DNA of 64,000 nt from Spirochaetia bacterium. GTDB taxonomy: Bacteria; Spirochaetota; UBA4802; UBA5550. The notes below the pieces were generated by a model, which did no database searches, was not told where the DNA came from, and worked only from the letters and a program-made list of their open reading frames with translations. The stretch spans positions 15,941 through 79,940 of the forward strand of contig VFJS01000056.1 in assembly GCA_009885955.1 (NCBI GenBank), given 5' to 3'. Of this stretch, positions 22,688 through 51,177 are shown piece after piece. Each line of letters starts with the position of its first letter. Positions within the stretch are counted from its first letter, which is position 1. The position numbers and the translations under genes were made by a program.

Positions 22688-23430
22688 TTTTTCGGATTAA
22701 CAAGTTCATTTGATGTCCACTTCCCGTTATCGTCCATCTCTTCATATTTCACAAACCTGTGGGGCGGCGCTGAATCGAAGTAGAAAATGAATTTCCCCTT
22801 GACAAATACCGATATCAATCCCGTTACCGTGAGCTCAAGCCTGTAGCAGTCAAATGTCCCTGCCGGCACGGTAACGTTCTGCCTGGATATGCTGGAGAGC
22901 TTCATTGTCATATCGCCGTTGGTTTCGTACATGTATGTCTTAAAAACAGCGAATGATGAAAATTGAAAGGGGAACCCCCTGAAAGCAACAAAATAGGCAT
23001 ACCTGGAATAGATGTTGCTGTCACTCACGGTGAAATATTTATCGATTTTTTTGTCCCTGTTGAAAAGATATGCCCTGCCTGCGCCGTCGTAGCTGTACGC
23101 TTCCAGCAGGGCGTTTGTTTTTGCATCATACCTTTTTTCCGATATTGTTGTCAGATCATCATGATTGATTTCAACATCATTTATATAAAGGTTGCCTTCG
23201 CGGACTACCACATGATAATATTTTATTCCATCCCTGTTTTTAAGATTTATTGATGCCTTTGCAGTAACATAGCCCACGTCACTGCTGATAAAATCGGTTA
23301 TTTCGAAATATTCTGATGCGGGGATGCCGGGATTCCTGAAAACCGGCCCGGCCAGGATGATATGCTGGAATACGATTAGTATCATCAGCACTGCCGGAGG
23401 TATTTTTAATATTTTCCAGTTTTTTATCAT
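22684..23430 (-). CDS. hypothetical secreted protein
   Basis: N-terminal signal peptide, beta-rich composition. Overlaps the downstream gene by 4 bp. Confidence 0.4.
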   Translation of the reverse strand: MIKNWKILKIPPAVLMILIVFQHIILAGPVFRNPGIPASEYFEITDFISSDVGYVTAKASINLKNRDGIKYYHVVVREGNLYINDVEINHDDLTTISEKRYDAKTNALLEAYSYDGAGRAYLFNRDKKIDKYFTVSDSNIYSRYAYFVAFRGFPFQFSSFAVFKTYMYETNGDMTMKLSSISRQNVTVPAGTFDCYRLELTVTGLISVFVKGKFIFYFDSAPPHRFVKYEEMDDNGKWTSNELVNPKK

Positions 23431-23753: not shown

Positions 23754-26042
23754 TTGCCGCGGCCTGCTGGAAATAGTACATTAATAAAACCAGGGAAATT
23801 ATTCAGCAGATTGATATCATACAATCAGCCCGTTAAAAAGGAGAATGTATTAATGGACCCAGTATGCTACAAGGACAAGAATGTAACGGCCAGTTACTAC
23901 TGCGCAAAATACAGCAGGTACCTTTGTGAGAACTGCCTTGCCTGCCAGGATCCGACAATATACTGCAAATTCCGCAAGATGTGTATGATATGGGAAGTCA
24001 TAAGATTCGGCACTCCGGAGATGCAGGAAAAGGCTGTTTCAAACCTGTTAAAGGATAAACCAAATCTTGCCGCAGATGTAAAGCCCGCGGCTGAAATAAA
24101 AGGGGCTGATAAGGCTGAATCAGCTGAAATAGTATTTCTTCCCAATAACAGGGGCTTCAAGGTGGAATCGGGTAAAACTATTCTTGAAGCCGCAAGGGAC
24201 AATGAAATTTATATAAATGCCAGGTGCGGGGGGAAAGGGGTCTGCGGCAGCTGCAGGGTAAAGATCCTGGAGGGCAGGGCTGATATCAAGGGCACAACCC
24301 ATCTGACTAAAGAAGACATTGACATGGGTTACGTCCTTGCCTGCACTACAAAAATTACGGGCAGCATTACAGCCGAGGTCCCTGAAGAAAACAAGGCCAG
24401 GGCGCTTAAAATTGTTGAGGAAGGATTTAAGATCAGGGAAAAGCTCCTTGCCGGGAAAACGGCTACACCCTTTGTTTCGGTATATCACCTGGAATTGCCT
24501 GCTCCCACTCTGGACGACCCGTCAAGTGATCTTGACAGGGTAAACAAGGTTTTAAAAATCCATGGCGTAGACTGCGACGCAAACTGCATAAGCCTTCCGG
24601 CTCTTGCGGAACTGTCATCGGACTTGAGAAGATATAACTGGAAGGTCAATATCACACTCCTTGACAGGGGATACTCCAGGGAGATAATCAGGACAACACC
24701 TTATGATACCGAAAGGAAGCATTACGGCCTTGCAGTGGACATGGGTACAACCTCTGTTGTGGCCTATCTTGTTGATCTCACGAATGCCGAAGTGGCCGGC
24801 GTAGCATCGACCCAGAACAGGCAGGTGGTCTTCGGTGAGGATGTCATATCCAGGATTATAAGCGCAAAGGGGGCCGAGGGGCTTGAGAGGCTCCATGGGT
24901 ATGCGATGAAAACCATTAATGGCCTTATCAACGAACTGGTCACCGTGGGGAAGATACACAGAAGGGACATCCTCTCCTTTGTTGTCGCGGGAAATACCGT
25001 AATGACCCAGTCGGTCCTTAAGCTCGACCCGAGCAGCATAAGGACCGAGCCCTATGTCCCGGTTGCAGTCAGGTTCCCCATATGGCAGGCCAGGGACATT
25101 GGCCTGGACATTCACCCCCATGGCGGCGTTTTCGTTGTGCCGGGAAATGCCGCCTATGTCGGGGGGGACATCACAGCCGGCATCATTGCCTCGGGCCTTA
25201 ATACGAAGGAAAACATAACCCTTTTCATCGATGTGGGGACAAACGGCGAGATGGTACTGGGCACCAAAAACTGGATGATGACGGCCTCCTGTTCCGCGGG
25301 ACCCGCGTTTGAAGGGGGCGGAATCCGTCACGGGATGAGGGCGCTTCCGGGAGCCATTGACGATGTTACCATTGATCCCGTGTCGCTTGAGCCGTCAATC
25401 AGCGTAATCGACGGCTTCCCTCCCGCGGGAATCTGCGGCAGCGGCATGATTTCCCTCATAGGCTCGCTTTATCTTGCCGGGATACTCGATTCCTCGGGGA
25501 AATTCAACGAAAATCTCATGACTGACAGGGTGGCCTCTGATGAATACGGCAAGAGGTACATCATTGCCAGGGAGAAGGACTCGGGAATCGAAGAGGACAT
25601 CTTCCTGGCAGAAAGCGATATCGCAATCCTGATCCAGAGCAAGGCCGCCATATACAGCGGATTCATGACCCTCCTTAAAAGCGCAGGTGTGACAATCAAT
25701 GAGGTGAACGAGTTCCTCATCGCCGGGGGTTTCGGGAGATATATTAATTTTAAAATGGCCATACTGATGGGGCTCCTCCCAGATATTGATCTGGAAAAAT
25801 TTAAATATCTTGGAAACAGCTCAATAGCCGGGGCCTATCTTGCCCTGGTCTCGGCGGATATCAGGAAAGAGCTCTGCGAGATATCGAAAAAAATGACCTA
25901 TGTCGATTTTTCATCATCAACGCTATTTTATGACGAGTACAGGCAGGCCATGTTTCTTCCGCATACCGATGTTAAAAGTTTTCCCAGCGTCATGGAGATA
26001 GTCAATGATAATAAGAAACTTCAGAAGAAGCGGCAGGTATAA
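23754..26042 (+). CDS. RACo-like reductive activase of corrinoid proteins (2Fe-2S ferredoxin plus ASKHA ATPase/DUF4445), with an extra N-terminal Cys-rich segment
   Basis: Plant-type ferredoxin motif CGGKGVCGSCRVK. ASKHA nucleotide-binding segments (GLAVDMGTTS, IDVGTNGE, GGFG). The real start may be the internal MDPVCYKDKN. Confidence 0.75.
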   Translation: MPRPAGNSTLIKPGKLFSRLISYNQPVKKENVLMDPVCYKDKNVTASYYCAKYSRYLCENCLACQDPTIYCKFRKMCMIWEVIRFGTPEMQEKAVSNLLKDKPNLAADVKPAAEIKGADKAESAEIVFLPNNRGFKVESGKTILEAARDNEIYINARCGGKGVCGSCRVKILEGRADIKGTTHLTKEDIDMGYVLACTTKITGSITAEVPEENKARALKIVEEGFKIREKLLAGKTATPFVSVYHLELPAPTLDDPSSDLDRVNKVLKIHGVDCDANCISLPALAELSSDLRRYNWKVNITLLDRGYSREIIRTTPYDTERKHYGLAVDMGTTSVVAYLVDLTNAEVAGVASTQNRQVVFGEDVISRIISAKGAEGLERLHGYAMKTINGLINELVTVGKIHRRDILSFVVAGNTVMTQSVLKLDPSSIRTEPYVPVAVRFPIWQARDIGLDIHPHGGVFVVPGNAAYVGGDITAGIIASGLNTKENITLFIDVGTNGEMVLGTKNWMMTASCSAGPAFEGGGIRHGMRALPGAIDDVTIDPVSLEPSISVIDGFPPAGICGSGMISLIGSLYLAGILDSSGKFNENLMTDRVASDEYGKRYIIAREKDSGIEEDIFLAESDIAILIQSKAAIYSGFMTLLKSAGVTINEVNEFLIAGGFGRYINFKMAILMGLLPDIDLEKFKYLGNSSIAGAYLALVSADIRKELCEISKKMTYVDFSSSTLFYDEYRQAMFLPHTDVKSFPSVMEIVNDNKKLQKKRQV

Positions 26043-26043
26043 T

Positions 26044-27201
26044 TTATTTTCCCTTTAATATATCAGAAAGTTGTTTTGTAAATTCCATGACTTTCACGCT
26101 TAGCGGGATGCTCAGTGAACCTGCGCCGCAGCTCGGCGTGATAATGGACTGGGACAGAACCATGTCCTCACTGAAACCCTTTTTTGCGCATGCTTTTAAG
26201 ACCGCCCGGAAATTTTTTTCCACTTCCGCGATGGATAGGCTCTCTATTTTTTCAGCAAGGGTGGGGACAATGCCCCAGGCAATAGCCTTTCCCTTTTCAA
26301 GGTACTCCCCCAGATTCGATGAATTAATGAATTTATCTGTGATAACATCGTCAGATGCGTCAAAATTTATTATCTCCAGGTCAAGGCCGAGCAGTTCCTC
26401 CCAGTCGGCATTGCCGCAGCAGTGCATTCCGGGGATGCCACCGGCATCAATGATTCCCTTAATGATCTCCCTGAAGGAATCCATGGCTGTATCCTTTTCA
26501 ATGGAATAAAATCCTGAACCGATAATGGACAGTGACGGCTCATCAATGAATATGACAACATCGGGATGGAGTTCCTTCAGCTTTTGTATCTGCCACCTGG
26601 CTGTCATGATTCCGTTTTTTATAATTGCATCGAATAGTTCCGGCTTGTAGATTGCCAGTTTCCCGTCGGCCCTGTCAGTGATAACTCCGTGGGTCATGGG
26701 GCCGACTATCTGCCCCTTTACCGCAAAAGCATTTTTCATGTCTTTTGACTGAGCATTTTTCATGAAGGCATAAAACCCTGAACCGGAATTTTCATCGATA
26801 CCGAAATATTCAATATCATCATTTATTATTTTCGTATAGAATTTATCAAGCTCCATGGGAAGGTCACCGGTGGTGTCGAATCCCGATTTTTTATTTTGAG
26901 GATCAATATAAAATGTGGGGAGTTTTTTGCTGAACTGGTTGTTGAACTCTTCGTATATGCTCATTTTTGGAAGTTGGGGCCATGCAGGCAGACGGGGTAT
27001 GGTTTCAAATATAATTCTGCATGCCTCATCCGGATCGGTATGGGGGAGGCTGCCAATGGCTGATGCAATTGCTTCCGGTTTTTTTTTCATTTCTTTCACC
27101 TTTTTTATAAATAAGCCATGATGCATTCTATGAAACAATTTAATTTTTTGACAGGGTGTCCACTCCTGCCGAAACCTGTGATGATGAATATAATTTAGCA
27201 A
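26044..27201 (-). CDS. UroD/MetE-like methyltransferase-family protein (cobalamin-independent methionine-synthase-like or corrinoid methyltransferase-like)
   Basis: IGSLPHTDP and LPAWPQLP N-terminal region typical of the MetE-like/UROD TIM-barrel family. Start probably at the internal MKKKPEAIASAIG. Convergent with the RACo gene. Confidence 0.45.
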   Translation of the reverse strand: MLNYIHHHRFRQEWTPCQKIKLFHRMHHGLFIKKVKEMKKKPEAIASAIGSLPHTDPDEACRIIFETIPRLPAWPQLPKMSIYEEFNNQFSKKLPTFYIDPQNKKSGFDTTGDLPMELDKFYTKIINDDIEYFGIDENSGSGFYAFMKNAQSKDMKNAFAVKGQIVGPMTHGVITDRADGKLAIYKPELFDAIIKNGIMTARWQIQKLKELHPDVVIFIDEPSLSIIGSGFYSIEKDTAMDSFREIIKGIIDAGGIPGMHCCGNADWEELLGLDLEIINFDASDDVITDKFINSSNLGEYLEKGKAIAWGIVPTLAEKIESLSIAEVEKNFRAVLKACAKKGFSEDMVLSQSIITPSCGAGSLSIPLSVKVMEFTKQLSDILKGK

Positions 27202-38602: not shown

Positions 38603-38737
38603 AGACATTACTCTGAGCTGGTGGTAAACGGGTAGGGTTTGCTCTGAGCCAGAGGCGTTACTCTGAGCATGGCTAGTTGGTTAAGGTTTTGCTCTGAGCA
38701 AGGCTAAGTAATTGAGACATTAGACATTACTCTGAGC
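38603..38737. promoter_or_regulatory. array of five (T/G)(A/G)CTCTGAGC motifs in the copA/thiS-like divergent intergenic region
   Basis: Motif starts at 38610, 38640, 38659, 38690 and 38728 (spacings 30, 19, 31, 38 bp). Two copies are preceded by GACAT. A TTGACA/TTGACT promoter-like region follows at 38778-38826. Confidence 0.4.
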
Positions 38738-38875
38738 ATCATTTCTAAAAAAATTCCATTTTTCTAAAAATTTTTCCTTGACAAAAAAAGGCAATACTTG
38801 ACTATTCTTATCAAGTTAGTAGGATTGTTTGTTTCAATCATTTATTGACCCTAAATTATATTACACGAGGCTGGT

Positions 38876-39094
38876 ATGAAAATAATAATTAATGGAAAAG
38901 AAGATTCAATAACTCCTTTGGATGGGAAGATAAATATTAACGAACTTCTTGCAATAAAAAATGTTGAAATGCCGGATATGGTATCGGTAGAACTGAATGA
39001 AGTTATATTGAACAGGGCCGATTTCGTTAATACCTTTATAAATCATGGTGATAGGGTGGAATTCCTCTATTTCATGGGCGGAGGGGCTGCCTGA
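38876..39094 (+). CDS. ThiS/MoaD-family sulfur carrier protein with a C-terminal extension after Gly-Gly (..FMGGGAA)
   Basis: 72-aa beta-grasp-sized protein. Ends in GG followed by extra residues (G)AA, as in CysO/HcyS-type carriers that need JAMM processing. Confidence 0.7.
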   Translation: MKIIINGKEDSITPLDGKININELLAIKNVEMPDMVSVELNEVILNRADFVNTFINHGDRVEFLYFMGGGAA

Positions 39095-39134
39095 GATTAA
39101 CCCCTGGTTTAGGGTAAAACTATGGAGGCTGAGT

Positions 39135-39962
39135 ATGGATTTTACAGAAGAACAGGTTGAGAGGTACAGCAGAAACATCCTTCTTGATGATGTGGGCGGC
39201 ACAGGCCAGAGGAAGCTCCTCGATTCCAGCGTCCTGATAATAGGCGCCGGCGGGCTTGGATCTCCGGCTGCGCTTTATCTGGCAGCTGCCGGCGTGGGCA
39301 CTATCGGAATTGTTGATGATGACCATGTTGAGCTCTCAAATCTGCAGAGGCAGGTAATCCACTTTACTTCGGATATCAGCAGGCCCAAGGCCGAATCGGC
39401 AGCGGAAAAGATGAGGCTCCTCAATCCCGGTGTAACAGTCATCCCTGTCATGGAGAGGCTCATGGCCGGGAACATAGTATCAGTCATAAAGGATTATGAC
39501 TTCATCATCGACGGCACCGATAATTTTCCTTCCAAGTTCCTCATTAACGATGCCTGCGTGCTTGGAGGAAAACCATTTTCCCATGGCGGCATCCTGAGGT
39601 TCTACGGGCAGACCCTGACCTATGTGCCGGGGTCAGCATGCTACCGGTGCCTCTTTCAGACTCTGCCGCCCAGGGGGACTGTCCCTTCATGCGGTGAAGC
39701 CGGCATACTTGGCGTGGTGGCCGGTATCCTCGGGATGATCCAGGCATCGGAAGCGCTCCGGTACATCCTGGGCATCGGGGAGCTCCTCACCAACAGGCTC
39801 CTGTATATGGACCAGCTTACCGTGGAGTTCAGGAAACTGAATACAAAGCCCAACCCCAACTGCCCGGTGTGCGGCGAAAACCGCACCATTCTTGAGCCAG
39901 TGGACTATGAACAGCCGGCCTGCAGTTTGAAAGAGGGGCCTGCCGCAAAGGTAAACCTTTGA
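39135..39962 (+). CDS. ThiF/MoeB-family E1-like adenylyltransferase (no rhodanese domain)
   Basis: RBS GGAGG then ATG at 39135. Nucleotide-binding GAGGLGSPAALYLAAAGVG. Zinc motif CYRC .. CPVC. Confidence 0.85.
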   Translation: MDFTEEQVERYSRNILLDDVGGTGQRKLLDSSVLIIGAGGLGSPAALYLAAAGVGTIGIVDDDHVELSNLQRQVIHFTSDISRPKAESAAEKMRLLNPGVTVIPVMERLMAGNIVSVIKDYDFIIDGTDNFPSKFLINDACVLGGKPFSHGGILRFYGQTLTYVPGSACYRCLFQTLPPRGTVPSCGEAGILGVVAGILGMIQASEALRYILGIGELLTNRLLYMDQLTVEFRKLNTKPNPNCPVCGENRTILEPVDYEQPACSLKEGPAAKVNL

Positions 39963-39990
39963 TGATGATCATAAGAAGAGGAGCATAAAG

Positions 39991-42702
39991 GTGGCAATGA
40001 GAATAAAGAGCAGTATAATCGCCGGGATGATAAGACACGCTGAAAATGATGCCCCCCTGGAAGCCTGCGGATACCTTGCCGGCAGAGGCAATCATGCGGT
40101 AAAAATGTACGCCATGGCCAACATGGATGGCAGCCCTGAGCACTATACCTTCAGCCCGGAAGAACAGTTCCGCGTGATAAAGGATGCAAGGAAAGAGGGG
40201 CTGGATATTGTCGCGGTTTATCACAGCCACCCCCGGTCGCCTTCTGTAATGTCTGCAGAGGACATGAAGCTTGCCTTTGATAAATCCATAAGCTATGTTA
40301 TCATCTCCCTGGAAAAGGGGACGGCGGACCTGAAATCCTACAAGTTTACAAAAGGGACTGTTGAACAGGAGGACATTGAAGAAGTGAAACTGAATTTTTA
40401 TGAAATACCTGAATTGTACATACACGAGCTCGATGCCTTTGAGAAAGTGACGAAGGACTTCATAGAAGGGTCTCTCGCCCAGGTGGAATACAGGGCCCAC
40501 AGGGTCAGTTTCGGGATCTATGAGCAGAGGACAAACGGCACCTACATGGTTCGTATCCGCTGCACGGCCGGCGGCATGACCCCTGCCCAGCTCGCCGTTA
40601 CCGCTGATCTCGCCGGCCGATACGGTTCAGGCAGGATCCATGTGACAACGAGGCAGGAGGTCCAGATTCATGACGTGAAGGTTGACGGGCTGGGCCCGGT
40701 ATTGAGGGAGCTTTTAACCATCGGCCTTTCCACGCGGGGGGGCGGCGGTAATACTGTGCGGAATATTACGGTTCCGGAGGATTCAGGCATCAGTGAAGAC
40801 GAAATTTTTGATGTGACACCCCATTCAGTTGCTCTAACCTCCAGGCTCATCAGGGACCAGGATTCATGGAACCTGCCGAGGAAATTCAAGATCGGTTTTG
40901 CTTCAGCCCCGGGGCACCGGGAGAGAATTATCGTGCAGGACCTGGGATTTGAAGCAGTGATCAGGGACGGGAGAAGGGGCTTCAGGGTATTCGGAGCAGG
41001 CGGGATGGGCGCGAAGCCCATGATGGCAGAACTTATACATGACTTCATCGAAGAGAAGGATATATACCGCGTCTCAACGGCAATGAAACGGCTTTTTGAC
41101 AAACATGGGAACAGGAGGAACAGGTATGCTGCAAGGCTCAGGTTTGTCTGGAAAAATCTTGGAAGGAAGGAATTCCTCAGGCTCTACAACGGGGAGCTGG
41201 ATCAGCTTGATAAGGATGATATGGGTCTGTTGTTCAATGAAATAATAAATGAAGGGACATCGACGGCGCTGGAATCCGTGAACGGAGAGGGACCTGAATT
41301 CGAATTATGGAAAAGCAGATATGTACTGGGTCAGAAGCAGGCCGGGCTTACATCGGTCCTTATCCCCCTTAGCCTGGGTGATATAAGCTCAGTGGATGCT
41401 CTGGAACTTGCGCGTTTTCTTGAACCCTTCGGGGAGAATGTACTACGCTTTTCCCAGGCGCAGAATATAGTCCTGAGAAATATACCGGAAGGGCTCCTGG
41501 GGAATGTCAGCCGGCATGTGGCAAAGCGCTATCCCCTTGCATCGGGGCCGTCGCTTTCAGGAAATGCCGTGTCATGCGCAGGCGCGGACACATGCAGGCT
41601 GGGCCTGTGCCTCTCCAGAAATCTCCTCTCCGCCGTTTACTCTGAGCTTGGAAAGACCGGTGTGGATCTGGATGGATTGAAGGATGTGAAAGTCCGGATT
41701 TCCGGATGCCCCAATGCCTGCGGCCAGCACCACGGCGCAGACATAGGCTTTTTCGGAAAAGTTTCGCGGAAGGATGACAGGTCTTATCCTGCATATTATA
41801 TTGTCGCGGGCCAGGGGCTGAACAGCGGTACTCCTGTTTTTGCCGAAAGGCTGGGTGAGATAAGCGCAAGGAATGTACCATTATTTTTACGCGAGATTCT
41901 TGAAGCCTATGCGGCTGCGGGAGGCGCGGAAACAGGTTTCAGTGGATTTATTGAATCCGGAAGGAATGGTAAGATCAGGACAATCCTGGACAAATACAGC
42001 CAGGTCCCGGGTTTTGATGAAGATAAAAATTACTATTTTGACTGGGGGGCCGATGAGGCCTTCTCCATCGCGGGCATGGGAAGGGGGGAATGCGCTGCCG
42101 GGCTCTTTGACATCATAGACCACGACGCCGACCTGATCAGGAAAAATATTGAAGGCCTCAGCTCTGAAAGGGATGAGGATAAAATCAGAACGTCCCTGGC
42201 GGATATTGTCTTTTCATCATCAAGGATGCTCCTTGTGACAAAGGGGATTGAGCCTCGTGGCAGGGCCGAAGTTTTCAGCCAATTCATTGGTTCATTCATT
42301 AAAAAAGGATTGGTTGAAGAAAAATATTCAGGCATTGTGGAGATGGCCGGTGACGGAGATCTGGACGGCCTTCTAAAAGAGAGGGATCTGGTTGTTGAAC
42401 TTTCACAGGCAGTAACCGCCCTTTATAATTCCATGGATAATTCACTCAGGTTCCCCGGGGAGGGGGAGTTAAAAACCCCTGCGGCAAAATTCAAGGACCT
42501 GAGAGGGGTGAAGTGCCCTTTGAACTTTGTCAAGGTAAAGCTCATCCTTGAAACCATGAAGGGCGGTGAGACACTTGAGATATTCCTGGACAACGGGGAG
42601 CCTATAGAAAATGTCCCCAGGTCGATTCAGAATCAGGGCGATGAGATTGTTAGCCGGAAAAGGAACGGGGATTACTGGTCAGTGACAATTAAGAAATCAT
42701 GA
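39991..42702 (+). CDS. tri-domain fusion: JAMM/MPN+ metalloprotease, siroheme-[4Fe-4S] sulfite(/nitrite) reductase hemoprotein, and TusA-like sulfur-relay domain
   Basis: JAMM motif E .. HSHPRSPSVMSAED (H-x-H-x7-S-x2-D). Sulfite reductase ferredoxin-like half-domains (GTYMVRIRCTAGGMTPAQL .. RIHVTTRQ) and the siroheme/Fe-S Cys motif CAGADTCRLGLC .. SGCPNACGQH. C-terminal TusA-like LRGVKCPLNF .. GETLEIFLDNGEPIENVP. The start is GTG 39991 or ATG 39997. Confidence 0.85.
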   Translation: MAMRIKSSIIAGMIRHAENDAPLEACGYLAGRGNHAVKMYAMANMDGSPEHYTFSPEEQFRVIKDARKEGLDIVAVYHSHPRSPSVMSAEDMKLAFDKSISYVIISLEKGTADLKSYKFTKGTVEQEDIEEVKLNFYEIPELYIHELDAFEKVTKDFIEGSLAQVEYRAHRVSFGIYEQRTNGTYMVRIRCTAGGMTPAQLAVTADLAGRYGSGRIHVTTRQEVQIHDVKVDGLGPVLRELLTIGLSTRGGGGNTVRNITVPEDSGISEDEIFDVTPHSVALTSRLIRDQDSWNLPRKFKIGFASAPGHRERIIVQDLGFEAVIRDGRRGFRVFGAGGMGAKPMMAELIHDFIEEKDIYRVSTAMKRLFDKHGNRRNRYAARLRFVWKNLGRKEFLRLYNGELDQLDKDDMGLLFNEIINEGTSTALESVNGEGPEFELWKSRYVLGQKQAGLTSVLIPLSLGDISSVDALELARFLEPFGENVLRFSQAQNIVLRNIPEGLLGNVSRHVAKRYPLASGPSLSGNAVSCAGADTCRLGLCLSRNLLSAVYSELGKTGVDLDGLKDVKVRISGCPNACGQHHGADIGFFGKVSRKDDRSYPAYYIVAGQGLNSGTPVFAERLGEISARNVPLFLREILEAYAAAGGAETGFSGFIESGRNGKIRTILDKYSQVPGFDEDKNYYFDWGADEAFSIAGMGRGECAAGLFDIIDHDADLIRKNIEGLSSERDEDKIRTSLADIVFSSSRMLLVTKGIEPRGRAEVFSQFIGSFIKKGLVEEKYSGIVEMAGDGDLDGLLKERDLVVELSQAVTALYNSMDNSLRFPGEGELKTPAAKFKDLRGVKCPLNFVKVKLILETMKGGETLEIFLDNGEPIENVPRSIQNQGDEIVSRKRNGDYWSVTIKKS

Positions 42703-42735
42703 AAATAAAAATAAAATCGTAAAAAGGCGGATTCA

Positions 42736-42963
42736 ATGGTTGAACAGCGCTGCAGAAGCATAGTCAAAACTCTATCGTGGAGAATAACAGGTACGATAGC
42801 TACCACACTGATATCCTTCCTGATAACCGGGAGCTTTGCCTTTGCATTATCAATAGGAACCTTTGAGTTTATCGCAAAAATGTTCCTCTACTATTTTCAT
42901 GAAAGGCTCTGGAACAGGATTAACCTGGGAAGGACTGCTCCGAAGAATGACTATCAGATATGA
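42736..42963 (+). CDS. DUF2061-like small membrane protein
   Basis: 75 aa, two TM helices. TLSWRITGT .. FLITGS pattern. Confidence 0.4.
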   Translation: MVEQRCRSIVKTLSWRITGTIATTLISFLITGSFAFALSIGTFEFIAKMFLYYFHERLWNRINLGRTAPKNDYQI

Positions 42964-43065
42964 TCATTTTAGAAAAAATACAATTTGCCACAGAGGCTCA
43001 GAGACACAGAGAAATGGTAATGGATTTAATAAAGGCTGGAATAAGTCAGTCATGAAGAAAGAAAT

Positions 43066-43088
43066 TACTCACGGATTTGCACGGATAA
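43066..43088. promoter_or_regulatory. TCACGGATTCA-family motif, site d
   Basis: TACTCACGGATTTGCACGGATAA about 120 bp upstream of cysH. Confidence 0.3.
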
Positions 43089-43134
43089 ACATGGATAAAA
43101 TTGAATATGAATGATATCAATATTTGGAAAAAAA

Positions 43135-43168
43135 AATCCGTGAAAATCTGTGTGAATCCGTGAGCAAA
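43135..43168. promoter_or_regulatory. TCACGGATTCA-family motif, site e (inverted relative to site d)
   Basis: Reverse complement reads TTGCTCACGGATTCACACAGATTTTCACGGATT. About 40 bp upstream of cysH. Confidence 0.3.
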
Positions 43169-43203
43169 TATCAAAAACTGAAAAGTTCAATTGGATAAAG
43201 ATT

Positions 43204-43944
43204 ATGATAATGCCTGAAGATTTGAAATCATTGCAGAGAGAGTTTTCCGGTGCAAAGCCCCGGGAGCTGCTTGAACACTTCATGAAGATACACGGTTCCC
43301 GGATAGCCCTTGCATCGAGCCTGGGGGCTGAAGACCAGGCCCTGACACACATGATGCTGGGGATAGACCCCGGGGCAGTGATATTCTTCATCGATACCGG
43401 TAGGCTCCATCAGGAAACCTATGATACTGCTGCGAAGACCATGAAAAGATACGGCATGAGATACCAGGTCTTTTTTCCTGACAACAAGAGGGTCGAGGAG
43501 ATGACCGGCGCCCACGGGCCAAATTTATTTTATGAGTCCGTGGCGCTGAGGGAGACATGCTGCCAGGTAAGAAAAGTTGAACCCCTGGAAAGGGCCCTCT
43601 CGAATATGGATGCATGGGTCACTGGCCTGCGCAGGGAACAGTCCCCTGCAAGGGCCGGACTGGAAGTCATTGAGTGGGACCCGGCGCGGAAGATGGTAAA
43701 GCTGAACCCCCTGGCATCATGGAGCAATGAGGAGCTCTGGAGCTACATCAGGGAACATGCGGTACCGTACAACAGCCTCCATGACCGCAACTTCCCCAGC
43801 ATAGGATGTGCGCCCTGCACCCGGGCAATAGGGGAAGGCGAAGATACACGGGCAGGGAGATGGTGGTGGGAGGATTCAGGGGAAAAAGAATGCGGCCTCC
43901 ATGTAAAGAGTCAAGAAACAGATGACAGGGGGGGATCGATATGA
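43204..43944 (+). CDS. cysH: adenylyl-sulfate (APS) reductase, thioredoxin-dependent, Fe-S type (CysH family)
   Basis: PP-loop SLGAEDQAL. Cys pair CC (ETCCQVRK) plus CAPC for a [4Fe-4S] cluster. C-terminal KECGLH catalytic motif. Confidence 0.85.
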
Positions 43945-44822
43945 TAATTCTTGATGAGCTGGAAAGCCAGAGTATCTATATTCTGAGAGAGGCCTACAGG
44001 GAATTTAAAAGCCTCTGCATGCTCTGGTCAATAGGAAAGGACAGCACGGTGTTATTATACCTGGCGCGGAAAGCCTTTTTCGGCCATGTTCCCATGCCGC
44101 TGGTACATATCGACACCAGGTATAAGATACCGGAGATGATAGAGTACAGGGACAACCTGGTGAAGGAATGGAAACTGAACCTCATATACGGCATGAACCG
44201 GAAAGCCATTGATGAAAAGAGGACCTTTCCAGACGGCAATGTTGACCGTTTAACCTGCTGTAAAAGTCTGAAGAGCGACGCACTGAGGCAGACGCTGAAC
44301 GGGGAGGGGGAGAGGTTCATCTTCAGTCATTCGGCCGGGAAATACATCCCCGATACCTCGCGCGAGGCCTATACCGGGGTCATCGTGGGAGTACGGGCGG
44401 ATGAGGAGGGGAGCCGTTCCAAAGAGCGCTATTTCTCTCCAAGGGACAGTGAGAGCGACTGGCGCATCGAGGACCAGCCGCCGGAATTCTGGAACCAGTA
44501 TAAGACTGACTTTTCCTCCGGCACCCACGTGAGGATCCACCCCCTCCTCGACTGGACCGAACTGAACATATGGGAATATATCGAAAGGGAGAACATCGGT
44601 GTCGTGTCACTCTATTTCGACAAAGGGGAAGGGATCCGGTACCGGTCACTGGGGTGCTACCCGTGCACGAAACCTGTGGAGTCCAAATCGAAAAATGTCC
44701 CGGAAATAATCGAAGAACTCAGGAGCGGCAGGTTCTCCAATATAGCCGAGAGGTCGGGAAGGGAGCAGGATAAAGACGGGGGCGGGACCCTGGAGACATT
44801 GAGGCGTGAGGGATATATGTAA
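43941..44822 (+). CDS. cysD: sulfate adenylyltransferase subunit 2
   Basis: PAPS-reductase-like fold with SIGKDS PP-loop. 293 aa. Its stop overlaps the cysN start (TAATG). Confidence 0.9.
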
Positions 44823-46654
44823 TGGAACAGATGGAACAGATAAAACAGACAAAACAGATAAAACAGATAGATCAGATGAATATCGTGGTGATAGGCCACG
44901 TGGACCACGGCAAGAGCACGGTGATCGGCAGGCTCCTCTCGGACACGGGCTCCCTGCCCGAAGGCAAACTGGAACAGGTGAAGATGCAGTGCCGTAAAAG
45001 CTCCAGGCCCTTTGAGTACGCCTTTCTCCTTGATGCCCTGAAGGACGAGCAGTCACAGGGGATAACCATCGATTCGGCCAGGTGCTTCTTTAAAACAGCA
45101 AAGAGGAATTATATCATCATAGACGCTCCGGGGCACATAGAATTTTTGAAGAACATGATAACCGGAGCATCCAGGGCAGAGGCCGCGCTCCTTGTCATTG
45201 ACGCGAATGAAGGGGTCCAGGAGAATTCACGGAGGCACGGTTTCATGGCTTCCCTCCTGGGGATCAAACAGCTCGTTGTCCTGGTGAACAAGCTCGATAT
45301 TTCAGGATACAGCGAGTCTGTGTATAACGGGATCAGGTCCGAGTTCACCATGTTTCTTGATAGCATAGAGGTGAGCCCTCTGGAATTTATTCCCATATCG
45401 GCGCGGGAGGGGGAAAACATCGCGGTGAAGTCGGATAAGATGCCCTGGTACAGGGGGATGACCGTGATCCAGCGGCTCGATGAATTCAAAAAGGAAAAGC
45501 CCCTTTTTCATAAGCCCTTCAGGATGCCTGTGCAGGACATATACAAGTTCACCATGTACGGCGACGACAGGAGGATAGTGGCTGGTACCGTATCCTCAGG
45601 GAAAATAAGCGCCGGCGATGAAGTTGTATTCCTCCCTTCGGGAAAAAAATCAGAAATAAATTCGGTAGAGGCTTTTAACTCTCCTGTTGAGGTCTCCGTT
45701 TCGGCAGGCAGGGCCGCTGGATTCACCCTGAAGACCCAGATATACATCCACCCCGGGGAGATCATGTGCAGGACTGGCGATGAGCTTCCATTCACCTCAA
45801 CGGCCTTCAGGGCGAACCTCTTCTGGGTCGGGAAGAGCCCCATGATACCGGGAAAGAAGTACAAGCTCAAGGCCGGAACCATGAAGGCCTCGGTGTACCT
45901 CAAGGAAATAATCAATATCATCGATGCCTCATCCCTTGACGAGGGCGCAAGCAGATCGGAGATCCTCAGGCACGACGTTTCGGAGTGTATTTTACAGACT
46001 CTGAAACCCGTATCCTTTGACCGTTTCAGCGACAATGAGCTCACGGGAAGGTTTGTTATCGTGGACGGATATGAAATTGCCGGCGGCGGGATAATCATGG
46101 AGCCCGTACAGGAATCCCTTTCCTATCTCGCGGAACATGCGGTGCGCAGGGACTACCGTTGGGTCAAGGGGAATGTGGCTATGGCCGCGAGGCACACACG
46201 GTTCAGCCAGAAGCCCCGGATCATCGTGTTCACCGGCGAAGAAACATTGGAATGGGAGGGTCTGGCGCAGGCCCTGGAACAGGACCTCTGGAGGGAGGGG
46301 CGGAATGTCTATTACCTGGGGCTTTCGAACATTTTGAGAGCCATTGACAATGACGGGCCCCGGGCATCCATAGACAGGGAGGAGGAGATATGCCGCCTCG
46401 GGGAATCGGCCCACCTCCTTGCCGATGCAGGCCTCATTGTCATAACCACCATTTCGGGACTGGATAATTACGAGTACGGCATGCTGAAGCTCATCTGCGA
46501 GCCCCATGAGATCCTTCTTATCAATGCAGGGATCGTTTCAGCTGACACCATTGACGCTCTGTCCATTGACAGCGGCCTGGAAGCCGGTGAGGCCCTTTCA
46601 AAGATAAAAACCTCTCTCAGGGATAGGGATATCATCCCCGACTTCCAGATTTGA
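44822..46654 (+). CDS. cysN: sulfate adenylyltransferase subunit 1 (GTPase) fused to a degenerate APS-kinase-like C-terminal domain
   Basis: G1 box [19 protein letters not shown]-terminal ~190 aa aligns with CysC, but the P-loop is replaced (GLSGSGKST becomes GEETLEWEG) and the DGD motif is lost. N-terminal [18 protein letters not shown] is encoded by a 9-bp-unit microsatellite. Confidence 0.85.
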
Positions 46655-46800
46655 AATGTTTTATTTCTGCCATCCAGCTGAGCCATGGGCCCGGTGGGTA
46701 TATGCCGAAGGCGATTCCGAAGAGGCATATGACACATGTTACCCTGACCCACCGGTGTCTGAACCAGCCCCGGCTTGTCCATATTGAATATATGTTCGCA

Positions 46801-46827
46801 GTGAAATCCGAGTAAATCCGTGAACCG
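46801..46827. promoter_or_regulatory. TCACGGATTCA-family motif, site f
   Basis: Reverse complement reads CGGTTCACGGATTTACTCGGATTTCAC. About 170 bp upstream of the LarE-like gene. Confidence 0.3.
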
Positions 46828-46985
46828 ATATTTATATTCCCGGATAGAGCGAAAAAATCCCAAAATTTTTTTCTTGTAAAAAATAATCAATTATTACAAT
46901 TGTAACTGGTTTATCAGTCACGATATGCCGGCCTGAAGTTTATTATCGGCATAGAGTAATTCATGTTGCGCAGACAGATGAAGCA

Positions 46986-47864
46986 TTGGAGAATTCAATG
47001 AAACGCATAGATTCCCTTAGATTCGATGACCGGGAACTGAATAAAAAAATTGACGGCCTTGCCGCTATCCTCAGGGATATGAAGAGCCTCGTCGTGGCCT
47101 TTTCCGGCGGCGTGGACAGCACATTTCTCCTGAAAGCGGCATGGGATATTTTAGGCGGAAATGTCCTGGCAGTTATTGCCAGGTCCGAGACCTATCCCGA
47201 AGGTGAATACCGGGACGCCCTTGCCTTTGCCGCGGAAATTGACGCCCCCTTCCTTGTCATAGATACCGGGGAGCTGAAAAACGAAAACTTTTCATCAAAC
47301 CCCCCTGACCGGTGTTATTACTGCAAAAGCGAGCTTTTCTGCAAGCTTACTGAAATAGCCCGGGAAAGGGGCCTGGCTTTTGTTGCCGACGGCTCGAACC
47401 TTGATGACACTGAAGATTTCAGGCCCGGTACAAGGGCATCCAGGGAGATTGGCGTGAGGAGCCCTTTAAAGGAGGCCGGGTTCACCAAGGATGACATCCG
47501 CCGCGTTTCCAGGGAACTGGGCCTCTCCTCCTGGGACAAACCCTCGCAGGCATGCCTCTCGTCTCGGTTTCCCTACGGTACGGAAATTACGCAGGAGAGG
47601 CTCGACATGATTTCCCTTGCCGAGGAATTTCTTGCAGGCCTGGGCCTCAGGTGCTGCAGGGTAAGGTATCACGGCGACATAGCGCGCATAGAAGTGCCGG
47701 CTGCGGATATGCAGATGTTTATCGACCCTGAACTGGCCGGCAGGATATACGGCAGGTTCAATGAAATCGGTTTTACCTATGTCACACTGGACATCAAAGG
47801 CTACAGGACCGGAAGCATGAATGAGGTCCTTCCGGATTCAGTAAAAGATATCAGGTCAGCATGA
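46986..47864 (+). CDS. LarE-like PP-loop ATP pyrophosphatase (sulfur transferase family, TIGR00268-like)
   Basis: PP-loop VAFSGGVDS. Cys motif CYYC .. C (PDRCYYCKSELF .. SQACLSS), suggestive of the Fe-S-dependent LarE subgroup. The start may be the internal MKRIDSL. Confidence 0.7.
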   Translation: MENSMKRIDSLRFDDRELNKKIDGLAAILRDMKSLVVAFSGGVDSTFLLKAAWDILGGNVLAVIARSETYPEGEYRDALAFAAEIDAPFLVIDTGELKNENFSSNPPDRCYYCKSELFCKLTEIARERGLAFVADGSNLDDTEDFRPGTRASREIGVRSPLKEAGFTKDDIRRVSRELGLSSWDKPSQACLSSRFPYGTEITQERLDMISLAEEFLAGLGLRCCRVRYHGDIARIEVPAADMQMFIDPELAGRIYGRFNEIGFTYVTLDIKGYRTGSMNEVLPDSVKDIRSA

Positions 47865-48274
47865 TTTCAGTTTCATCAAAGGGGATCTACGGGCTTGCGG
47901 CGCTCTTTATTCTGGCCCGGAACTACGAGAGCGGGCCCCTCCGCATAAAAGATATCTCCTCGGGCGAGGGAATACCCAGGCAGTACCTGGAGCAGCTGCT
48001 TATAAAGCTCAAGAAAAGCGGGCTGGTAAAGAGCTACAGGGGCAAGGACGGGGGGTATTCGTTGAAAAAAAGGCCTTCCGAGATTACCGTGTACGAGGCG
48101 CTGGTCTGCCTTGAAGGGCCAATGGAGCTTGCTTCATCAACCACCAGAACCGGCACTCTCCATTTTTTCTGGCAAAGGGCGCAGCAGGAAATCATAGAAA
48201 TTTTCGACATCACCCTCGAAGACCTCATCATGGAGCATGACAGGCTCAACAACCAGGTTGTTTATGATATATGA
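47861..48274 (+). CDS. Rrf2-family transcriptional regulator without the Fe-S Cys triad (CymR-like)
   Basis: wHTH (SSGEGIPRQYLEQLLIKLKKSGLVKSYRGKDGGYSL). Only one Cys in the region where IscR-type proteins have three. 4-bp overlap with the LarE-like gene. Confidence 0.85.
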   Translation: MISVSSKGIYGLAALFILARNYESGPLRIKDISSGEGIPRQYLEQLLIKLKKSGLVKSYRGKDGGYSLKKRPSEITVYEALVCLEGPMELASSTTRTGTLHFFWQRAQQEIIEIFDITLEDLIMEHDRLNNQVVYDI

Positions 48275-50496: not shown

Positions 50497-51177
50497 CTAC
50501 AACTTGGACAGCGGTATGAGAATCTTTGCGTATGTCTTGGACTTGTTGTCCGTAGAAAGTGTTAAATTTTTATGGGAGAGGTTGATATTTTTCAGCAGAA
50601 CAATTATCATTGAGAGCCCGAGCCCCATGCCCTCGGCTTCAGGGTCCGGATTCTCCATGTAGATCTGGGCGATGTTGTCGTATTTTGAGGCCTGTTCGAT
50701 CTTTTCAGTCATCCGGTTGTATTCCTTTTCGGACAGGGGGAGGTTGTTGATTACTTCAACAATCAGATTTTTCGATTTAACCTTGAAGTAAATCCTTGTG
50801 GAGAGTTTTTTGTCCTTGGCCTTTATGCCGTATTCAAGGAGGGAGTTTTTGTTCAGGATCGATCTCACCTTCTGAACCACTTCCATGGGATCGTCAGGAT
50901 TTTTTATCACCCCTTCGTCAATGAGTATTTTTTTTGCGGTGGCCTTTGTGGCATTGGCTATGAGCTCCTTGATGCAGGAAAGTACGGCGGTGAAAATATC
51001 CACCATATTATGTTTTTCAAGAATTTTGGCCAGGGTGAAGACAATTTTTTCCTCCACCTGGTCCAGGGCTGAGTAGGTTATGAATACAATATCCTCCTGG
51101 TTCCTGATGGCTGTAAGGACTATCCGGTGAAAATCTTTGCTGAGGATAGATTCACTTTTTTTAATTTCATCATTCAT
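50497..51177 (-). CDS. GHKL-like (histidine-kinase-like ATPase) domain protein, stand-alone
   Basis: N-box-like IKELIANATKA and G2-like EAEGMGLGLSMI. Paralogous to the N-terminal half of the protein at 59973..61466. Confidence 0.4.
   Translation of the reverse strand: MNDEIKKSESILSKDFHRIVLTAIRNQEDIVFITYSALDQVEEKIVFTLAKILEKHNMVDIFTAVLSCIKELIANATKATAKKILIDEGVIKNPDDPMEVVQKVRSILNKNSLLEYGIKAKDKKLSTRIYFKVKSKNLIVEVINNLPLSEKEYNRMTEKIEQASKYDNIAQIYMENPDPEAEGMGLGLSMIIVLLKNINLSHKNLTLSTDNKSKTYAKILIPLSKL

Follow-up and report, generated by a model that had tools for sequence, protein, structure and literature searches.

A JAMM protease–sulfite reductase–TusA fusion protein in a putative protein-thiocarboxylate sulfate-assimilation operon of a spirochaete

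In the window, a stretch of 64,000 nucleotides from an uncultured Spirochaetia bacterium, a single gene encodes a JAMM protease, a sulfite reductase (SiR), a HEPN-like linker and a TusA domain. The protein is an end-to-start fusion of a JAMM protein (JAB) and an SiR-linker-TusA protein, which occur elsewhere as a pair, and it is special only in one lost gene boundary. Based on its domains and its gene neighbourhood, it probably (at roughly 80%) acts as the central enzyme in an operon for protein-thiocarboxylate sulfate assimilation of the Wolinella type (HcyS/HcyD/HcyF/Sir/MetY), with the HcyD-like JAMM and Sir genes joined end to start. The most likely predicted function is sulfite reduction with delivery of the sulfur to the C-terminus of a small carrier protein, which the protease would unmask and recycle. 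The gene and its parts are as follows.

39991..42702, + strand: fusion ORF of 903 aa, JAMM protease + sulfite reductase + HEPN-like linker + TusA (ORF listing, Pfam)
39991..40389, + strand: JAMM/MPN+ metalloprotease domain, aa 1-133 (Pfam Prok-JAB, Foldseek)
40390..42060, + strand: ferredoxin-type siroheme-[4Fe-4S] sulfite reductase core, aa 134-690 (Pfam, PDB matches)
42061..42480, + strand: HEPN-like helical-bundle domain, aa 691-830, with no Pfam family
42481..42699, + strand: TusA/SirA-type sulfur-carrier domain, aa 831-903, with C842-P843

Four parts of one chain

All Pfam domains of the fusion lie above the curated cut-offs, with values far beyond chance; the scan that the initial annotation had called for returned Prok-JAB, NIR_SIR_ferr, NIR_SIR and TusA. 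Prok-JAB (PF14464) covers aa 9-109 (E 1.3e-21; 77 bits against a cut-off of 25), and the JAMM motif HSHPRSPSVMSAED occupies aa 78-91. This motif had already been read as intact, and indeed the pattern E ... H-x-H-x7-S-x2-D is present with all five catalytic residues (E24, H78, H80, S88 and D91) in place, invariant in 14 fused homologues. The MPN fold is recovered with a target-normalised Foldseek TM score of 0.92 to Pyrococcus JAMM1 solved with SAMP2 (PfJAMM1, 5lda), and the domain is 40% identical to DSY2949 (2kks; TM 0.81). The closest NCBIfam models, 'desampylase' (JAMM) and 'SAMP-activating enzyme E1', are both under their cut-offs.

In the SiR core, the first residues (from aa 134) align with the N-terminus of the relatives' separate SiR proteins, and NIR_SIR_ferr (3.4e-27) and NIR_SIR (9.1e-36) each match two stretches of the one chain. 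The siroheme-[4Fe-4S] cysteine motif proposed for the second half-domain holds, as C529-x5-C535 and C573-x3-C577. A careful alignment, suggested earlier as a check for lost SiR catalytic residues, shows no loss: the four cysteines are kept in 81 of 81 relatives together with R188, R221, R257, K298 and K300. Four of these residues, R188, R257, K298 and K300, form the anion-binding Arg/Arg/Lys/Lys set, in which the second Lys tells SiR from NiR, and are presumably the equivalents of E. coli R83, R153, K215 and K217. The sequence and fold matches in the PDB are plant nitrite reductase (NiR), M. tuberculosis NirA, maize SiR and E. coli SiRHP, and the Foldseek TM scores to tobacco NiR, NirA and SiRHP are 0.77-0.79. 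It is K300 that marks a predicted sulfite-type active site, since this lysine stands at the position of tobacco NiR N226 (PRKFK here, PRKWN in NiR); PDB 3vlx is the N226K mutant of the tobacco enzyme. All NCBIfam equivalogs are under their cut-offs for this core (NirA family, 211 against 523; sir, 75 against 732), and the core therefore represents a distinct subfamily.

The initial annotation was correct in calling JAMM, SiR and TusA, as Pfam confirms, but overlooked a fourth part. The linker that separates SiR from TusA (aa ~690-830) is a distinct conserved domain with the invariant motif G-E700-C701-x-x-G704-x-x-D707, and its fold is a four-helix up-down bundle with HEPN topology. Pfam gave no HEPN match to it at E 0.01, and the R-x4-6-H nuclease motif was not found in it, the conserved R745 being followed by MLLVTKG with no His. 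For these reasons, the linker is HEPN-like in fold only, and an assignment as a HEPN RNase is ruled out. Standalone linker-TusA proteins were also considered and rejected; the ~250-aa matches all begin at one internal SiR motif and resemble truncated gene calls. A literature search returned no description of the linker or its cysteines, nor of a JAB-SiR fusion, and the HEPN-like domain of the SiR-linker-TusA family is previously undescribed.

At the C-terminus, the TusA-type Cys-Pro motif noticed at the outset is present as KC842PLNF within a Pfam TusA match (aa 836-902, E 6.3e-17), with the Cys-Pro at the start of helix 1 of a two-layer alpha/beta fold. By an alignment-based count, C701 and C842 are near-invariant throughout the SiR-linker-TusA family, and every member examined has the HEPN-like domain and both cysteines. 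In one sub-lineage, the C-terminal module is apparently a rhodanese instead of TusA (P0367 by Pfam, P0349 by motif).

Soundness of the frame and relatives, fused and split

The ORF begins with GTG, preceded at 8 nt by the Shine-Dalgarno-like AAGAGGAG, and is read through 903 codons without an internal stop, in agreement with the continuous frame claimed for it. An alternative ATG at 39997, two codons past the GTG, gives the 901-aa version found as an NCBI entry (P0001). Two independent read-set assemblies (SRR9952633 and SRR8670878) contain this 901-aa gene unchanged and in the same neighbourhood, and the identical protein is also encoded on a 105-kb NCBI contig. The concern that the ORF might be a chimeric assembly can thus be answered: owing to this recurrence in independent assemblies, and to the same in-frame architecture in 27 other protein clusters, a chimera is very unlikely. 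At the JAB/SiR junction, CTG (Leu134) stands at the site of the relatives' SiR ATG and the JAB stop codon is absent, and the JAB C-terminus runs straight into the SiR N-terminus with no linker between them. Since JAB and SiR lie in different frames in the split relatives, such a clean junction is not obtainable from a single base error. A full-length AlphaFold2 model of the fusion has a pLDDT of 89.4 and a pTM of 0.80.

A total of 4256 proteins match at E <= 1e-10, TusA being present in all of the best 120, and at least 579 relatives occur in species-representative genomes of many phyla. The three-way architecture had been thought unfamiliar; this did not stand, because an identical protein is in NCBI, the four Pfam domains occur together in 28 of the best 120 clusters (90% identity; the cluster of the window protein included), and the parts are operon partners already named in the class 4e text of PMC1779556. 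Some fused homologues carry the NCBI names 'Mov34/MPN/PAD-1 family protein' and 'sulfite reductase (ferredoxin)'.

Most relatives are split. Of 81 related loci, 73 hold a JAB gene together with the SiR-TusA gene, for the most part on its upstream side and adjoining or overlapping it; in 3 of 3 loci picked without regard to JAB, a JAB gene immediately precedes SiR-linker-TusA. A Helicobacter-labelled metagenome-assembled genome also has the pair. In the split form, a JAB gene and a gene for an SiR-linker-TusA protein of ~780 aa usually abut or overlap by a few bases, whereas the window has one gene; over the SiR-linker-TusA part identity is 45-51%, and the invariant residues and the neighbouring genes agree. 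SiR-linker-TusA is thus the standard single protein of the operon, and JAB is the adjoining gene. JAB-SiR fusions arose in at least three phyla and thus recur as a minor variant within a known system; this count comes from a neighbour-joining tree without support values, in which three or more groups are backed by taxonomy and by differing junction lengths.

Relatives conserve the gene order ThiS-MetY-ThiF-JAB-SiR.TusA-DUF2061-CysH-CysD-CysN. Their carriers share the FLYFMGGG + tail design, with residues past FMGGG in about 58 of 61, and two tailed carriers are fused in frame to MetY. Such tails and fusions after FMGGG imply that a protease is needed. With the MetY of a fused-type operon as query, PDB 3ri6 scores 426 bits and the second-best MetY 288 bits; we take 3ri6 to be the Wolinella MetY. 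According to one paper, the thiocarboxylate-using Wolinella enzyme is the only MetY whose structure has been described.

Operon context and a proposed route of sulfur

The genes that surround the fusion in the window are as follows.

38876..39094, + strand: ThiS-like sulfur carrier, 72 aa, ending ...FLYFMGGG-AA (Pfam ThiS 2.2e-08; NCBIfam thiS 46 bits against 37.45)
39135..39962, + strand: E1-like adenylyltransferase of the ThiF/MoeB/UbaA type, 275 aa (Pfam ThiF 7.5e-81)
42736..42963, + strand: DUF2061 small membrane protein (Pfam DUF2061 2.8e-22)
43204..43944, + strand: CysH, APS-reductase type (NCBIfam TIGR02055 'adenylylsulfate reductase, thioredoxin dependent', 254 bits against 235)
43941..44822, + strand: CysD, sulfate adenylyltransferase small subunit (NCBIfam NF003587, 345 bits against 195)
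44822..46654, + strand: CysN, sulfate adenylyltransferase GTPase subunit (NCBIfam TIGR02034, 355 bits against 336)
47861..48274, + strand: Rrf2-family regulator, CymR/IscR-like (Pfam Rrf2 6.4e-28)

One cluster thus holds a carrier whose Gly-Gly end is masked by two alanines, a JAB protease and an E1 without rhodanese, as well as a SirA/TusA domain, a sulfite reductase, CysH, CysD and CysN; an acceptor enzyme, MetY and/or cysteine synthase, is missing from it. In the E1, ThiF is the sole Pfam domain above cut-off, the translation shows two CxxC pairs and a Cys in PSCGEAGILG, and the closest PDB matches are E. coli ThiF and MoeB. CysH shows CC...CxxC and ECGLH. CysN ends in a degenerate APS-kinase-like domain (APS-kinase model, 54 bits against a cut-off of 163). 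DUF2061 lies directly downstream of the SiR-TusA gene in four related loci as well (L003, L016, L030 and L084) and is found in many of the 81 loci. The Rrf2 gene recurs in many related loci; its product passes the NCBIfam rrf2 superfamily model and is under the cut-off of the CymR model. A repeat motif upstream in the window is absent from every related locus, and hence no link to the Rrf2 regulator is drawn. Over the whole window, Rfam detected no riboswitch or other RNA family, and the promoter/terminator scan gave no decisive signal. GlyQ assigns the window to Spirochaetota, against a Desulfobacterota origin that its cytochromes had suggested.

The following mechanism may be proposed. Sulfate would be converted to sulfite by CysD/CysN and CysH, as their family membership suggests, and the SiR core would reduce the sulfite at its siroheme-[4Fe-4S] centre with ferredoxin electrons, consistent with the conserved catalytic residues. 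The JAMM domain would trim the two C-terminal Ala residues of the carrier and bare its Gly-Gly, to judge from the masked end and from what is reported of HcyD, and the rhodanese-less E1 would adenylate the carrier. Reduced sulfur would then pass to the carrier adenylate to form carrier-COSH. In the version that we prefer, Cys842 of TusA may be the persulfide carrier and Cys701 of the linker the resolving thiol: the C701-C842 disulfide would react with HS- to give C842-SSH, C842-SSH would attack the acyl-adenylate, and C701 would free the thiocarboxylate and restore the C701-C842 disulfide. Finally, by analogy, a PLP sulfhydrylase encoded elsewhere in the genome would consume the thiocarboxylate, and the JAMM domain would hydrolyse the carrier-amino-acid adduct and thereby recycle the carrier. 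The fusion itself probably only fixes the stoichiometry and proximity of two proteins that already cooperate. The 64-kb window has no MetY or cysteine-synthase gene; the consumer of the thiocarboxylate in the spirochaete could differ from that of the relatives.

The product of sulfite reductase is S(2-), whereas the cargo of TusA is S(0); because of this mismatch, a relay from SiR to TusA requires an additional, postulated redox step. In the Wolinella study, the thiocarboxylate was reportedly made with free bisulfide, so existing data do not demand a protein relay. Nevertheless, it is plausible that TusA takes up sulfur and serves the carrier C-terminus, as initially proposed; this idea agrees with the 2006 prediction of SirA acting in place of the rhodanese that the E1 lacks, and is supported by the apparent replacement of TusA with rhodanese in a relative. 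A bolder proposal, which we regard as rather doubtful, is that SiR-linker-TusA hands reduced sulfur straight to C842, with C701 resolving and no free sulfide, and that this persulfide makes the thiocarboxylate from the carrier adenylate held on the E1. On this view, the triple fusion would unmask the carrier, reduce sulfite, and load and recycle the carrier, all on a single chain, and in this spirochaete the loaded carrier may serve a LarE-type thiocarboxylating enzyme instead of MetY or CysM. DsrC at DsrAB is a loose analogue of such a direct hand-over, which, if true, would amount to sulfide-free sulfate assimilation in anaerobes.

The same pathway might also run with no relay at all, which we consider possible but appreciably short of even odds. 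Free sulfide from SiR would attack the adenylate in solution, TusA and the linker would have another role, such as delivering sulfite or thiosulfate, sequestering sulfide or sensing redox, and the JAB fusion would be a neutral outcome of overlapping genes. However, C701 and C842 are almost absolutely conserved across phyla and TusA is apparently swapped for rhodanese, both of which point to cysteine-based sulfur carrying; also against this reading, the E1 lacks rhodanese exactly where SirA/TusA always occurs, according to the class 4e text (PMC1779556). An unlikely alternative is that the operon serves a new purpose in this lineage: after loss of MetY and cysteine synthase and insertion of LarE next to the regulator, the carrier thiocarboxylate or sulfide would feed another acceptor, for instance in the thiocarboxylation of a nicotinate-derived cofactor, and not the synthesis of homocysteine or cysteine. 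A search of the 64 kb in every frame found no MetY or PALP (cysteine synthase) homologue, whereas both are present in L016, the nearest relative, which is collinear; LarE, an ATP-dependent sulfur transferase, is encoded by a gene overlapping the Rrf2 start by 4 nt (NCBIfam LarE, 337 bits against 150), and a preprint names LarE among the genes clustering with ThiS/ThiF near Thi4. However, the view is limited to 64 kb and MetY or CysK may lie elsewhere in the genome, a gap of ~330 nt separates CysN from LarE, no larB or larC occurs among the window ORFs scanned, and LarE matches are found in 0 of 81 related loci, so that the adjacency may be accidental.

Two further readings concern what the domains are. 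It is highly improbable that the JAMM domain serves as the deconjugase in a ubiquitin-like, SAMPylation-like system of protein modification, in which the carrier would be conjugated to targets, perhaps the reductase itself, and would not transfer sulfur. The SAMP2-bearing JAMM1 structure is the top fold match of the JAB domain and the nearest NCBIfam models bear SAMP-related names, albeit under their cut-offs; yet the genes conserved beside it encode sulfate-assimilation enzymes and PLP sulfhydrylases, with no E2/E3-like or proteasome genes among them, and the Wolinella and M. tuberculosis precedents give the same gene sets sulfur-carrier roles. Scarcely credible is the last reading, that the core is a nitrite reductase or that two genes were merged into the single ORF by an artefact of assembly or sequencing. 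Plant nitrite reductases are the top PDB sequence matches, and 'NirA family' and 'ferredoxin--nitrite reductase' come nearest among the NCBIfam models, each scoring under cut-off. Against this, M. tuberculosis 'NirA' matches equally well and is a sulfite reductase (Schnell 2005), and the nitrite-reductase reading is rejected on K300 at the N226 position and on neighbours that are all sulfate-assimilation genes. Although most relatives have two separate genes, the artefact is likewise rejected: the ORF is identical in three independent assemblies, 27 other clusters are fused in frame, and the differing JAB and SiR frames of the split relatives would require more than one base error.

The fusion is mainly confirmatory, a natural 'Rosetta stone' indicating that the JAMM protease and the TusA-bearing SiR of the thiocarboxylate pathway act together, which was already implied by comparative genomics in 2006. 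The pathway is easily mis-annotated, and as of November 2017 it was missing from MetaCyc and KEGG (Price et al. 2018). The candidate cysteine relay of SiR-linker-TusA, as read from sequence, is more interesting than the fusion. The unfused family appears large and is a more useful subject; it is the place to test how sulfur travels from a six-electron SiR to the thiocarboxylate of a protein.

Comparison with known systems

We take the operon type of the window to be that of the Wolinella succinogenes HcyS/HcyD/HcyF/Sir/MetY pathway, the protein-thiocarboxylate methionine pathway of Krishnamoorthy and Begley (2011). The two are said to share a tailed ThiS-like carrier, a JAMM protease, a rhodanese-less E1, and a sulfite reductase clustered with sulfate-activation genes; unlike Wolinella, the window has protease and reductase in one polypeptide and no MetY in the cluster or in the 64 kb. 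The M. tuberculosis CysO/Mec+/MoeZ/CysM cysteine pathway, which Burns et al. are said to have described in 2005, reportedly also has a ubiquitin-like carrier, an adduct-hydrolysing JAMM, an E1 and a PLP sulfhydrylase acceptor. It differs in that MoeZ has its own rhodanese, no TusA-bearing SiR is known in the cluster, and the acceptor is CysM and not MetY. The DsrAB-DsrC and TusA-DsrEFH-DsrC relay likewise reportedly combines a siroheme sulfite reductase with a small cysteine sulfur carrier, TusA taking part, whereas it is dissimilatory, made of separate proteins, built on another reductase family (DsrAB matches are weak, E ~1e-7) and not known to involve a ubiquitin-like carrier.

The class 4e of Iyer, Burroughs and Aravind (2006), as its text sets out, comprises ThiS/MoaD-like, JAB, E1, SirA, sulfite reductase, PAPS reductase and ATP sulfurylase genes, with the E1 always lacking rhodanese and SirA always present in a predicted rhodanese-like role (PMC1779556). 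The gene set of the window is identical to the one given there, both diagnostic features (no rhodanese on the E1, and SirA/TusA) included; the class 4e text treats SirA as a component of the neighbourhood and mentions neither a JAB-SiR fusion nor a helical Cys domain (PMC1779556). ThiS-SiR fusions of actinobacteria are noted in the same source. These fusions (PMC1779556, in the part concerned) and the NirA/Sir-rhodanese proteins of Halobacteria (PMC11237513) have other partner domains and no JAMM, yet they share with the window protein an assimilatory core covalently tied to a sulfur-carrier module.

Reading frame, domains and identity of the fusion

It is probable (about 0.8) that the JAB-SiR-TusA fusion joins a protease that processes and recycles the carrier to the sulfite reductase (SiR) of a thiocarboxylate-dependent sulfate-assimilation route, this estimate covering both identity and pathway. 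As the initial annotation described, the open reading frame at 39991-42702 (+) runs for 903 codons from a GTG without internal stops. An ATG two codons past the GTG gives a 901-aa form, which is 100% identical to the public protein P0001 (NCBI and Logan; longest contig 105,395 bp); the stretch AAGAGGAG ends 8 nt before the GTG, and the GTG is the better-placed start. Independent assemblies of two read sets both contain this gene, unchanged and among the same neighbours, and a chimeric assembly is therefore very unlikely. In the Pfam scan, curated thresholds were passed by Prok-JAB (aa 9-109, E 1.3e-21), by NIR_SIR_ferr (3.4e-27) and NIR_SIR (9.1e-36), each as two stretches, and by TusA (aa 836-902, 6.3e-17). 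The three-way architecture, which the initial annotation did not recognise, is in fact already present in public databases, as is the exact protein, under generic names.

The motifs first read from the sequence were borne out by an alignment of 14 proteins of the same architecture, which are 43-49% identical: the JAMM residues E24, H78, H80, S88 and D91, the cluster/siroheme cysteines C529, C535, C573 and C577, and the TusA pair C842-P843 are all invariant. The anion-binding residues of SiR are likewise retained, R188, R257, K298 and K300 being invariant in the 14 proteins, and all SiR functional residues are kept in 81/81 loci. In the alignment with tobacco nitrite reductase (NiR), PRKWN of NiR underlies PRKFK of the window, and K300 therefore occupies the position of N226; PDB 3vlx is the N226K mutant of the tobacco enzyme, and the second lysine at this position is the signature of a SiR. 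Mycobacterium tuberculosis 'NirA' is an equally good match to the SiR core in sequence and fold, and it is a sulfite reductase (Schnell et al. 2005). None of the NCBIfam equivalogs reaches its cut-off for the SiR core, which thus belongs to a subfamily of its own within NirA/Sir. The AlphaFold2 model of the full-length protein is confident (pLDDT 89.4, pTM 0.80), and the JAB region in it can be superimposed on Pyrococcus JAMM1, whose structure was determined with SAMP2 (TM 0.92), and also on Desulfitobacterium hafniense DSY2949 (40% identity).

Fused and split forms across bacteria

When genomes were scanned, each species being represented once, at least 579 relatives were found, and the best 80 of these come from Desulfobacterota, Planctomycetota, Omnitrophota, Acidobacteriota (including the cultured Telmatobacter bradus), Bacteroidota, Spirochaetota, Fibrobacterota, Campylobacterota and others. 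After the ORFs had been re-derived in every one of the 81 loci, a separate JAB ORF was counted alongside a SiR-linker-TusA ORF in 73/81; it mostly abuts or overlaps the latter upstream, and in a minority lies several hundred to ~3000 nt off, sometimes downstream. In-frame fusions occur in only five of the 81 loci, from Sedimentisphaerales (twice, L003 and L012), Desulfobacterales, Pirellulales and one further planctomycete, and the JAB domain is fused in 28 of the best 120 protein clusters. Because the locus ranking favoured JAB-bearing loci, three SiR-TusA proteins whose rank came from their own sequence were also examined; the JAB gene lies 0-2 nt upstream in 3/3 of these loci, and two of them have the full order ThiS-MetY-ThiF-JAB-SiR.TusA-(DUF2061)-CysH-CysD-CysN.

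The junction in the window reads ...VEQEDIEEV-K-L-NFYEIP.... In the alignment, its left half matches the ends of separately encoded JAB proteins (...VEKEEIDII*) and its right half the beginnings of separately encoded SiR proteins (MKFYDIP, MNFYEIP), a CTG codon taking the position of the ATG in the split relatives; in other fused lineages, inserts of up to ~45 residues are found here. In a SiR-linker-TusA distance tree computed without support values, the fused forms make up one larger group of 13 sequences, another of 10 and several singletons, and the nearest neighbours of the window are split forms. By its GlyQ, the window belongs to uncultured Spirochaetota. We conclude that JAB and SiR became fused on separate occasions in three or more phyla; since the tree has no support values, no finer claim is made. 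At the junction (40367-40386), an AGGAGG is located 11 nt 5' of a GTG that is in frame (Val132). This AGGAGG may be what is left of the ribosome-binding site of an ancestral SiR gene, and a separate SiR-TusA product could arise from it.

The operon and its carrier

The genes of the operon lie on the same strand as the fusion:
38876-39094 (+): ThiS-like carrier, 72 aa, ending FLYFMGGG-AA
39135-39962 (+): E1 adenylyltransferase, ThiF/MoeB-type, 275 aa, without a rhodanese domain
42736-42963 (+): DUF2061 small membrane protein, directly after the fusion
43204-43944 (+): CysH, passing the APS-reductase model; Fe-S APS-reductase type
Between CysH and CysN (+): CysD
44822-46654 (+): CysN with a degenerate APS-kinase-like tail
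46986-47864 (+): LarE-type PP-loop, ATP-dependent sulfur transferase (NCBIfam TIGR00268, 337 bits)
Start overlapped by the LarE-type gene (+): Rrf2 regulator, last of the operon (38876-48274)

DUF2061 is found directly 3' of the SiR-TusA gene in many phyla, as in the related loci L003, L016, L030 and L084. The C-terminal APS-kinase-like domain of CysN scores far under its cut-off, and GEETLEWEG stands at the expected position of the kinase P-loop. This degenerate domain, together with the Fe-S APS-type CysH, suggests a PAPS-independent route.

Among 61 ThiS-like carriers of the related loci, ~58 have residues past the conserved F-M-G-G-G (1-3 in ~36 and 4-25 in 20), and just three stop at the glycines. 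This explains why JAB is a fixed member of the operon, and the pattern matches the HcyS-Ala/HcyD logic of the Wolinella system, in which HcyD is the JAMM protease counterpart. Two of the ~58 (L075, 5690-7153; L082, 5037-6473) are fused in frame to a MetY-type sulfhydrylase that begins right after ...FLYFMGGG, and release of the carrier from MetY would fall to the JAMM protease. The PLP enzyme of a fused-type operon matches PDB 3ri6, the Wolinella MetY enzyme, at 426 bits, versus 288 bits for the next MetY. The Wolinella enzyme is reported to use a carrier thiocarboxylate, not bisulfide.

The closest SiR relative is L016, a collinear spirochaete MAG with separate JAB and SiR.TusA genes in the order ThiS > MetY > ThiF > JAB > SiR.TusA > DUF2061 > CysH > CysD > CysN > Rrf2 > PALP. 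MetY and PALP (cysteine synthase) are present there, whereas neither has a homologue anywhere in the 64-kb window (tblastn in all six frames; Pfam scans). The window also carries a LarE gene, placed between those for CysN and Rrf2; a LarE match occurs in 0 of the 81 other related loci; the gene follows CysN after a gap of ~330 nt, overlaps the Rrf2 start by 4 nt, and encodes a CxxC and a third Cys. The acceptor enzymes may be encoded elsewhere in the genome; that the operon feeds a different consumer here seems unlikely.

Upstream of the carrier gene (38603-38744), a ~19-23-nt repeat occurs five times, at spacings of 19-38 nt, and has TT(A/G)CTCTGAGC as its core. The core is palindromic (GCTC-N-GAGC), and an A/T-rich direct repeat comes after the array. 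The search pattern catches three TTACTCTGAGC copies, against a chance expectation of 0.12 per window, and was found at none of the related loci. The array may be an operator array.

Elsewhere, the window encodes a multihaem c7/c3-type cytochrome (14829-16439, 536 aa), which seems unexpected for Spirochaetota, and a RACo-type corrinoid activator (23754-26042). At E 1e-5, Pfam gives no match for six larger ORFs of 226-446 aa, including:
10441-11376 (-)
13473-14813 (+)
21977-23430 (-)
26044-27201 (-)
50497-51177 (-)

The linker, sulfur transfer and known systems

An unannotated domain separates SiR from TusA:
42061-42480 (+): HEPN-like helical domain, aa 691-830 of the fusion

The near-invariant Cys701 lies in its G-E-C-x-x-G-x-x-D motif. 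When the linker by itself was the query of an exhaustive search through 1.84 billion proteins, just 231 representatives were recovered. The full-length matches are ~780 aa long and have the domain at roughly residues 550-700, as expected for SiR-linker-TusA proteins, and the domain family is essentially confined to these. The shorter matches inspected all start at one internal SiR motif and resemble truncated gene calls, not standalone proteins. A cysteine is found at the C701 position in 133/135 and at C842 in 107/108 of the search representatives, and both are kept in 80/80 related loci. In the protein P0377, Ser replaces the TusA cysteine. After the linker, P0367 (265 aa) has Pfam Rhodanese (1.8e-13) where TusA would be, and P0349 (791 aa) has a CRTGRRS active-site motif, judged by eye; in one sub-lineage, the C-terminal module thus appears to be a rhodanese in place of TusA. 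In addition, P0352 (841 aa) carries a porphobilinogen deaminase (HemC, tetrapyrrole synthesis) N-terminal to SiR-linker-TusA and could be a genuine fusion or a chimera.

How sulfur reaches the carrier can be stated only tentatively. Passage along a relay of cysteines, as opposed to sulfide diffusion, has close to an even chance or slightly less. The relay is favoured because C701 and C842 are near-invariant across phyla, because a rhodanese apparently takes the place of TusA in one sub-lineage, and because E1 has lost its rhodanese in the very place where TusA is always found (PMC1779556). A redox-neutral C701/C842 cycle would fit: HS- would open the C701-C842 disulfide to give C842-SSH, this persulfide would attack the carrier adenylate, and C701 would resolve the acyl disulfide, releasing carrier-COSH and restoring the disulfide. 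DsrC captures partly reduced sulfur at DsrAB, and by analogy a more radical alternative would be that partly reduced sulfur is captured at the siroheme. The putative SiR-linker-TusA relay to which the fusion draws attention is a testable step in sulfur assimilation, and the fusion of two abutting operon genes will not surprise the specialist.

The Wolinella succinogenes system (HcyS/HcyD/HcyF/Sir/MetY) is said, by Krishnamoorthy and Begley in 2011, to make homocysteine via a carrier thiocarboxylate. In the literature searched, no description was found of the JAB-SiR-TusA fusion, the HEPN-like linker or the linker cysteine. The parts, operonic linkage and pathway are already known (2006, 2011): in Iyer, Burroughs and Aravind (2006; PMC1779556), the gene set of the window is a major class of ThiS/MoaD-JAB-E1 neighbourhoods, with Wolinella succinogenes among the example genomes ('Wsuc' in the table). 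A ThiS-SiR fusion in actinobacteria is also described there, and a NirA-rhodanese fusion is known from Halobacteria (PMC11237513).
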